Source: Escherichia coli (GTDB lineage Bacteria > Pseudomonadota > Gammaproteobacteria > Enterobacterales > Enterobacteriaceae). From it: 64,000 nt of DNA. Of this stretch, positions 25,931 to 26,497 are shown in pieces. The notes beneath the pieces were generated by a model. That model made no database searches. It was not told the origin of the DNA and was given only the letters and a program-made list of their open reading frames with translations. Numbering within the stretch: position 1 is the stretch's first letter; the number at the start of each line of letters is the position of its first letter. The position numbers were made by a program, and so were the translations under genes. The DNA is taken from the NCBI RefSeq assembly GCF_003334385.1, contig NZ_QOWN01000006.1. One strand, 5' to 3'.

Positions 25931-26497
25931 ATGAATATCACTGCTACTGTTCTTCTTGCGTTTGGTATGTCGATGGATGCATTTGCTGCATCAATCGGTA
26001 AAGGTGCCACCCTCCATAAACCGAAATTTTCTGAAGCATTGCGAACCGGCCTTATTTTTGGTGCCGTCGAAACCCTGACGCCGCTGATCGGCTGGGGAAT
26101 GGGCATGTTAGCCAGCCGGTTTATCCTTGAATGGAACCACTGGATTGCGTTTGTGCTGCTGATATTCCTCGGCGGGCGAATGATTATTGAGGGTTTTCGT
26201 GGCGCAGATGATGAAGATGAAGAGCCGCGCCGTCGACACGGTTTCTGGCTACTGGTAACCACCGCGATTGCCACCAGCCTGGATGCCATGGCTGTGGGTG
26301 TTGGTCTTGCTTTCCTGCAGGTCAACATTATCGCGACCGCATTGGCCATTGGTTGTGCAACCTTGATTATGTCAACATTAGGGATGATGGTTGGTCGCTT
26401 TATCGGCTCAATTATTGGGAAAAAAGCGGAAATTCTCGGCGGGCTGGTGCTGATCGGCATCGGCGTCCAGATCCTCTGGACGCACTTCCACGGTTAA
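25931..26497 (+). CDS. mntP: Mn2+ efflux pump MntP
   Basis: Track ORF 25877-26497; known 188-aa protein starts [10 protein letters not shown]. Confidence 0.85.

Follow-up and report, generated by a model that had tools for sequence, protein, structure and literature searches.

A four-base overlap between the convergent mntP and rlmA genes of Escherichia coli, with a Rho-dependent rlmA mRNA end at a hairpin inside mntP

The junction between mntP and rlmA in E. coli is most probably (a probability of about 0.8) an ordinary and ancient tail-to-tail gene junction, at which rlmA transcription is terminated by Rho and the rlmA mRNA ends at a hairpin, I1, that lies inside mntP, and at which the mntP mRNA is predicted to end after a second hairpin, I2, that lies inside rlmA. 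The window analyzed was the whole 64,000-nucleotide stretch of E. coli contig NZ_QOWN01000006.1 (assembly GCF_003334385.1), and all positions given without commas are positions in that window. The region from 25400 to 27800 was 99.9 to 100% identical to that of E. coli K-12-type strains. MG1655 coordinates were converted to window positions by subtracting 1,879,757, an offset fixed by the published coordinates of mntP (1,905,688-1,906,254) and rlmA (1,906,251-1,907,060).

The mntP coding sequence, which encodes a manganese efflux pump of 188 amino acids, occupies 25931-26497 on the plus strand and ends with the TAA at 26495-26497. The rlmA coding sequence, for the 23S rRNA m1G745 methyltransferase of 269 amino acids, occupies 26494-27303 on the minus strand and ends with a TAA read from 26496 to 26494. 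The plus strand reads ...CAC GGT TAA TAA GAA... across the junction, and the two stop codons, on opposite strands and offset by a single base, are interlocked in the TTAA at 26494-26497, giving a coding overlap of 4 nt. This overlap had been described in a sequence-only reading of the region and was borne out by the sequence, by the open reading frames, and by RefSeq, in which the PGAP annotation of MG1655 carries the identical 4-nt overlap. That reading had also allowed for the two gene ends being corrected in such a way that they no longer overlapped, and we examined whether one end could be wrong. Such an annotation error is excluded. The 3' ends of the two open reading frames cannot be moved by reannotation because they are fixed by the stop codons. 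Both frames were upheld to their last residues by curated family models, with MntP matching the NCBIfam equivalog NF008546 at 413 bits (cut-off, 214) over residues 1 to 188 of 188 and RlmA matching NF008300 at 476 bits (cut-off, 303) over its full length, and residues 1 to 269 of RlmA were 100% identical to the deposited chain sequence of PDB entry 1P91. Identical ends were found in 62 other species, and an artifact would require a sequencing error common to more than 5000 genomes. At its other end, the mntP reading frame could be extended 18 codons upstream (25877-25930, plus strand) to an in-frame ATG at 25877, giving a protein of 206 amino acids; the family model and RefSeq favored the 188-amino-acid form starting at 25931.

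Overlaps of this kind are well known. Lillo and Krakauer (2007; PMC2174442) described a class of convergent stop codon overlaps made up of TTAA, CTAA, TTAG, and CTAG, found 4 bp to be the modal length of convergent overlaps in prokaryotes, and counted 58 convergent overlaps in E. coli. The mntP and rlmA pair has the same geometry, with two genuine genes on opposite strands lying 3' end to 3' end and their stop codons interlocked, one base out of register, in one of the permitted tetramers. It does not differ from that class in kind, being in addition traceable through 80 species, with all four tetramers found at the orthologous site. The junction is an ordinary tail-to-tail overlap belonging to the commonest convergent class and, since E. 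coli has several dozen such convergent pairs, is alone of little weight. The TTAA taken as a lone tetranucleotide is not statistically remarkable, because a correctly framed TAA or TAG preceded by T or C is enough to create the overlap and no other convergent overlap length is as frequent as 4 bp. No special function would be required of the overlap itself, since a stop codon on one strand would provide a stop codon on the other, one base out of register, and the arrangement would be stable once formed. It was also established in the same study that, for genes in convergent overlaps, any terminator necessarily lies within the coding sequence of the partner, and the no-spacer logic of the sequence-only reading restated this point. 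Public annotation already carries the overlap, its class was described in 2007, and the rlmA 3' end can be read from a published table; the present analysis adds comparative evidence for selected stem-loops in both coding ends, a small extension of the known picture.

The age of the junction was assessed by comparing the mntP loci of 80 species-representative Enterobacteriaceae genomes, with both stop codons located in each. The rlmA gene was convergent with mntP in all 80 species, and the exact 4-nt overlap was present in 62 of them (TTAA in 52, CTAA in 6, TTAG in 3, and CTAG in 1). Ten species, chiefly Klebsiella and Raoultella, had a gap of 3 nt, two had an overlap of 48 nt in which the rlmA stop codon was lost and the frame continued, and the other six had gaps of 0 to 16 nt. 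No gap exceeded 16 nt in any of the 80 Enterobacteriaceae species, and none of these could accommodate a terminator between the genes. Among 5423 complete E. coli genomes, the 80-mer spanning 26462-26541 was identical in 5381 (99.2%), and three control 80-mers within mntP and rlmA were identical in 1871, 3859, and 3862 of the 5423, which, with just three controls, is suggestive of extra constraint on the junction within E. coli. It is this persistence, in 62 of 80 species and in the 5381 genomes that share the 80-mer, that appears to go beyond chance, and the comparison indicates that the mntP-rlmA overlap is old.

Several of the genomes gave observations of their own. In the two species with 48-nt overlaps, Lelliottia sp. 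WAP21 (L043) and Huaxiibacter chinensis (L044), the base before the mntP stop codon was G or A rather than T or C; the rlmA stop codon was therefore lost and the overlap extended to 48 nt, a natural instance of overlap growth through stop codon loss. An assembly titled Chryseobacterium sp. 18061 (L074; CACSKA010000003.1) had an mntP-rlmA locus of enterobacterial type that differed little from the locus of Citrobacter sp. 18056 (L073), which belongs to the same project; the assembly titled Chryseobacterium is probably mislabeled or contaminated. In the laboratory strain E. coli ET12567 (hit H2; NZ_CP045457.1), the matching 2.4-kb region was split in two by the insertion of an IS4-like transposase of the ISVsa5 family.

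The end of the rlmA mRNA has been mapped in published work. The Term-seq data of Adams et al. (2021; PMC7815308, supplementary file 1) include a 3' end at 1,906,214 on the minus strand that is classed both as antisense to mntP and as a primary end of rlmA; two of the three condition sheets list it, and no other 3' end is given for rlmA. In that data set, the 3' end is base 51 of a 61-nt string, a convention that was verified against thrL, and an exact string match placed this steady-state end at window position 26457 (minus strand), with the offset cross-checked against the published gene coordinates. The rlmA mRNA thus ends inside mntP, in the antisense orientation, 37 nt beyond its own stop codon and 6 nt beyond I1. 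The sequence-only reading had held that the two mRNAs must overlap at their 3' ends and had proposed 3'-end mapping as a check. The overlap of the mRNAs follows from the lack of intergenic DNA, and for rlmA it is shown directly by the published end 37 nt into mntP. Its companion claim, that there is no room for separate terminators, did not hold, as separate stem-loops I1 (26463-26483) and I2 (26506-26539) are present, each inside the coding sequence of the partner. With no spacer between the genes, the 3'-end signals of each mRNA therefore sit in the coding sequence of the other.

The same study provides evidence on how rlmA transcription ends (PMC7815308, supplementary file 2). A Rho termination region with its peak at 1,906,268 on the minus strand was reported, with 145 reads upstream and 22 downstream in untreated cells versus 342 upstream and 530 downstream in cells given bicyclomycin, and with a Rho score of 10.2 (p = 1.3e-31) at the rlmA end. 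By these published reads, read-through at the rlmA end was approximately 10 times higher with bicyclomycin; the score is calculated from 800-nt windows and places termination only approximately. These results demonstrate that the rlmA 3' end is Rho dependent and lies at I1. Directly downstream of 26457, the 80 nt from 26453 to 26374 on the minus strand are C rich and G poor (32.5% C and 15% G), with a C/G ratio of 2.17 compared to a 90th percentile of 1.56 for the window. This stretch is untranslated on the minus strand and, by its composition, is a candidate Rho loading (rut) region on the rlmA read-through RNA.

No canonical intrinsic terminator, in which a GC-rich stem is directly followed by a U-tract, was found at the junction. 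The sequence that follows I1 on the rlmA strand, CGAUGCCGAUCAGC (CGAUGCC), contains no U-tract. A scan of 25400-27900 for consensus terminators and promoters gave none at the junction and a single terminator-like site at 27345-27329. An Rfam scan over 25450-27400 likewise detected no RNA family there, whether with gathering thresholds or with a cut-off of E<=1. We also considered whether I2, together with the U-rich run CGUUCUUAUUAA, might act as a weak intrinsic terminator of rlmA on the minus strand, such that transcripts would end at or around the rlmA stop codon. On that strand, six of the 10 nt after I2 are U, in a run that takes in the stop codon. The run is not conserved, however, reading CGUGACAGUUAA in Salmonella and CGCGAAGAUUAA in Enterobacter, no end was mapped there by Term-seq, in which 26457 is the sole rlmA end, and the consensus terminator scan made no call at this site. 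In addition, ends before or at the stop codon would yield nonstop mRNAs. This candidate was rejected, and we regard it as very improbable.

A different possibility is that polymerases meeting head on would end both transcripts, with stem-loops rather than Rho fixing the site. According to the account of Ju et al. (2019) given in the preprint of Wang et al. (2022), bidirectional terminators that are neither intrinsic-like nor Rho dependent and that need a stem-loop occur between convergent E. coli genes. The mntP and rlmA genes resemble these in being a convergent pair whose 3' ends overlap and whose boundary is marked by stem-loops, and two conserved stem-loops flank their junction. As described in that account, however, those terminators are Rho independent and lie between genes, whereas there is no intergenic DNA between mntP and rlmA, which have two separate stem-loops rather than one that is shared, and the approximately 10-fold rise in read-through with bicyclomycin and the Rho score of 10.2 show the rlmA end to be Rho dependent. 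Moreover, no mntP 3' end was detected under the conditions in which the sharp rlmA end was mapped, which fits with low mntP transcription without Mn and few opposing polymerases. Termination by collision is accordingly an unlikely explanation of the rlmA end, and Rho-dependent termination with an end at I1 is preferred.

The properties of the rlmA end are those of a class described by Dar and Sorek (2018; PMC6061677), in which Rho-dependent mRNAs undergo diffuse termination downstream and are then shortened by 3'-to-5' exonucleases as far as a stem-loop with no U-tract after it. As in that class, the published Term-seq data place a precise rlmA end a few nucleotides past a stable stem-loop that has no U-tract, read-through is sensitive to bicyclomycin (at a resolution of about 800 nt), and the untranslated RNA downstream has a bias of C over G. 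Termination by Rho followed by trimming to a protective hairpin fits the end at 26457 and may well explain it. Unlike the members of that class, rlmA has its stem-loop not in an intergenic 3' untranslated region or a REP element but in the sense codons of the convergent gene, and the residues of MntP and the structure of the rlmA RNA appear to constrain each other, with Val/Ala and Thr/Ala substitutions in MntP covarying as a base pair.

The proposed protective stem-loop of rlmA, I1, is a perfect inverted repeat at 26463-26483 on the minus strand (GCGUCCAGA-GGA-UCUGGACGC) with a 9-bp stem, and lies within the last codons of mntP (G-V-Q-I-L-W-T). Of all 31-nt windows in the antisense-mntP RNA of E. 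coli, the one at I1 folded most stably (-15.6 kcal/mol, compared to a median of -3.7 kcal/mol), and the same was true of about 25 other species belonging to Escherichia, Citrobacter, Salmonella, and Enterobacter. At pair 4 of the stem, covariation among C-G, U.G, and U-A preserved pairing on the minus strand in 60 of 63 species, with U-A in E. coli and C-G in Enterobacter, and these changes alter MntP (GTC Val to GCC Ala and ACG Thr to GCA Ala). Pair 2 alternated between C-G and U-A. The intermediates in these changes are G.U wobbles on the minus strand and would be C.A mismatches on the plus strand. Among the 39 species with a nearly complete stem, 21 G.U pairs were counted on the minus strand versus 1 on the plus strand; because the species are related, such counts exceed the true number of separate changes, and about five independent wobbles versus one can be discerned. 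Because of this excess of G.U pairs and the covarying stem pairs, the comparison points to selection of I1 on the rlmA-sense RNA.

Conservation of I1 was confined to Escherichia, Citrobacter, Salmonella, and Enterobacter, and genera without it had a different strong GC-rich hairpin about 80 nt into mntP. This hairpin, GGCCCGCU...AGCGGGCC, with folding energies of -14 to -22.6 kcal/mol, was found in the mntP codons G-P-L-L-G-K-R-A of many genera outside Escherichia, Citrobacter, and Salmonella, including the loci designated L033, L036, L040, L048, L057, L060, L068, and L076 and others. It lies approximately 70 to 95 nt upstream of the mntP stop codon, equivalent to 26405-26428 in E. coli, in which the corresponding residues are G-S-I-I-G-K-K-A and the hairpin is missing. 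Its G.U pairs numbered 51 on the minus strand versus 9 on the plus strand and came mostly from one common Lys codon, AAA. In these other genera, it may replace I1 as the rlmA 3' stem-loop.

The second hairpin, I2, spans 26504-26542, can form on either strand, and has a core stem of CUGCCAGA and UCUGGCAG (26506-26513 paired with 26532-26539). It lies within the last 15 codons of rlmA (C-Q-T...L-W-Q), starts 9 nt after the mntP stop codon, and folds at -17 to -18 kcal/mol with a z score of about -3.5 on either strand. Across 63 species, the stem was nearly invariant. The codon for RlmA residue 263 encoded 8 different amino acids, yet its third base was C in 61 of the 63 species, and this C pairs with the third-base G of a CAG codon, the G-C pair being retained in 60 of 63. 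The outer pair joins the third base of a codon that encodes 9 different amino acids with that of a Gln codon, and it was C-G in 54 species, U-A in 4, U.G in 3, and C.A in 2; the U-A cases are double compensatory changes, synonymous in both codons, in four separate lineages. The codons of the loop varied freely, with GAC in 17 species and GAT in 46, and TTT in 31 and TTC in 32. With third positions in the stem fixed while the encoded amino acid varies, the I2 stem shows selection at the nucleotide level, and the protein alone does not account for its invariance. The G.U pairs of I2, 13 on the plus strand versus 9 on the minus strand, showed no strand asymmetry, and I2 could therefore serve rlmA, mntP, or both.

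The same part of rlmA is rich in repeats. Within 70 nt at the 3' end of rlmA (26506-26574), there are four copies of CTGGCAG or CTGCCAG (in codons V-W-Q, L-A-A, C-Q-T, and L-W-Q), from which several alternative pairings, designated I3 and I5, can form in competition with I2. Each strand also has a copy of CTCTGG (in MntP ...ILW... and RlmA ...HLW...), which allows a pairing across the junction, designated I4.

We propose that I2 is the protective 3' stem-loop of mntP and predict that the mntP mRNA ends there. The Term-seq data of Adams et al. (PMC7815308), which were obtained under LB and M63 conditions, contain no plus-strand 3' end for mntP, probably because mntP transcription is low without Mn. 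According to a 2024 JBC study (PMC11647493), the mntP riboswitch and Rho acting in the leader keep expression low when Mn is not supplied; that paper on mntP and Rho deals with the 5' leader and the early reading frame and does not mention rlmA. The supplements of the SMRT-Cappable-seq study make no mention of mntP, rlmA, or yebN.

Taken together, these results are consistent with the following sequence of events. RNA polymerase passes the rlmA stop codon into antisense-mntP RNA, which is untranslated on that strand, and Rho ends rlmA transcription within this region; trimming by a 3'-to-5' exonuclease back to I1 would yield the end at 26457. When Mn2+ turns mntP on, its transcript would run past its own stop codon into antisense-rlmA RNA, where it would probably also be terminated by Rho and end just past I2. 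With an mntP end after I2, the two mature mRNAs would be complementary over roughly 26457-26545.

This complementarity raises the question of whether the two genes regulate each other in the manner of an excludon, such that mntP, when induced by Mn, would lower the expression of rlmA, or rlmA that of mntP, by interference between the two transcription units or by RNase III cleavage of the paired 3' ends. The mature RNAs are necessarily complementary over at least 41 nt (26457-26497), and the arrangement has been kept across the family. Against such coupling, full-text searches found no paper that ties rlmA to manganese or mntP other than a deletion table, and Mn export and m1G745 methylation are not known to us to be functionally connected. 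The 3-nt gap in Klebsiella and Raoultella and the 48-nt overlap in two species indicate that the exact geometry is not essential, and the mutual constraint of interlocked stop codons and embedded hairpins explains the conservation more simply. Regulatory coupling as the basis of the arrangement thus seems improbable to us, to about the same degree as termination by collision, and an ordinary junction with embedded 3'-end hairpins remains the preferred reading. A wider proposal, which we put forward tentatively and consider more doubtful than not, is that the junction is a reciprocal 3'-end module across the Enterobacteriaceae, in which I1 within mntP would stabilize the rlmA mRNA and I2 within rlmA would stabilize the mntP mRNA. 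The C termini of MntP and RlmA would then each be constrained by the RNA of the partner, and the duplex of about 90 nt formed upon induction by Mn2+ could couple the stabilities of the two mRNAs.

The junction is of modest value as a clean worked example of how 3'-end signals are placed when there is no spacer, in which a mapped, Rho-dependent mRNA end lies at a hairpin built from the sense codons of the partner gene and covariation in that hairpin extends to positions that change amino acids. Synonymous sites at gene ends, and even some nonsynonymous ones, can on this evidence be constrained by the RNA of a neighboring gene. This matters when either gene is recoded or deleted, as a clean deletion of mntP would take away the 3' hairpin of rlmA.

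Other elements were noted in the DNA on either side of the two genes. The mntP leader contains a match to the Mn2+ (yybP-ykoY) riboswitch aptamer at 25704-25800 on the plus strand (41.6 bits, E = 2.5e-9). This score is below the Rfam gathering cut-off of 45 bits, and a default Rfam scan therefore misses this characterized riboswitch. The interval that separates yobD from mntP contains a long, AT-rich inverted repeat at 25513-25565 (-23 kcal/mol, z score of -4.4), which gave spurious matches to microRNA precursors on the plus and minus strands alike. The sequences GCTATGTTT and ACATAGC in its arms resemble MntR-box half-sites, and instead of being a terminator of yobD, the repeat may form the MntR operator region that precedes mntP. 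On the other side, the yobF-cspC leader at 27394-27854 on the minus strand matches the Rfam cspA thermoregulator over its full length (135 bits), and this cspC gene is named cspE by PGAP.
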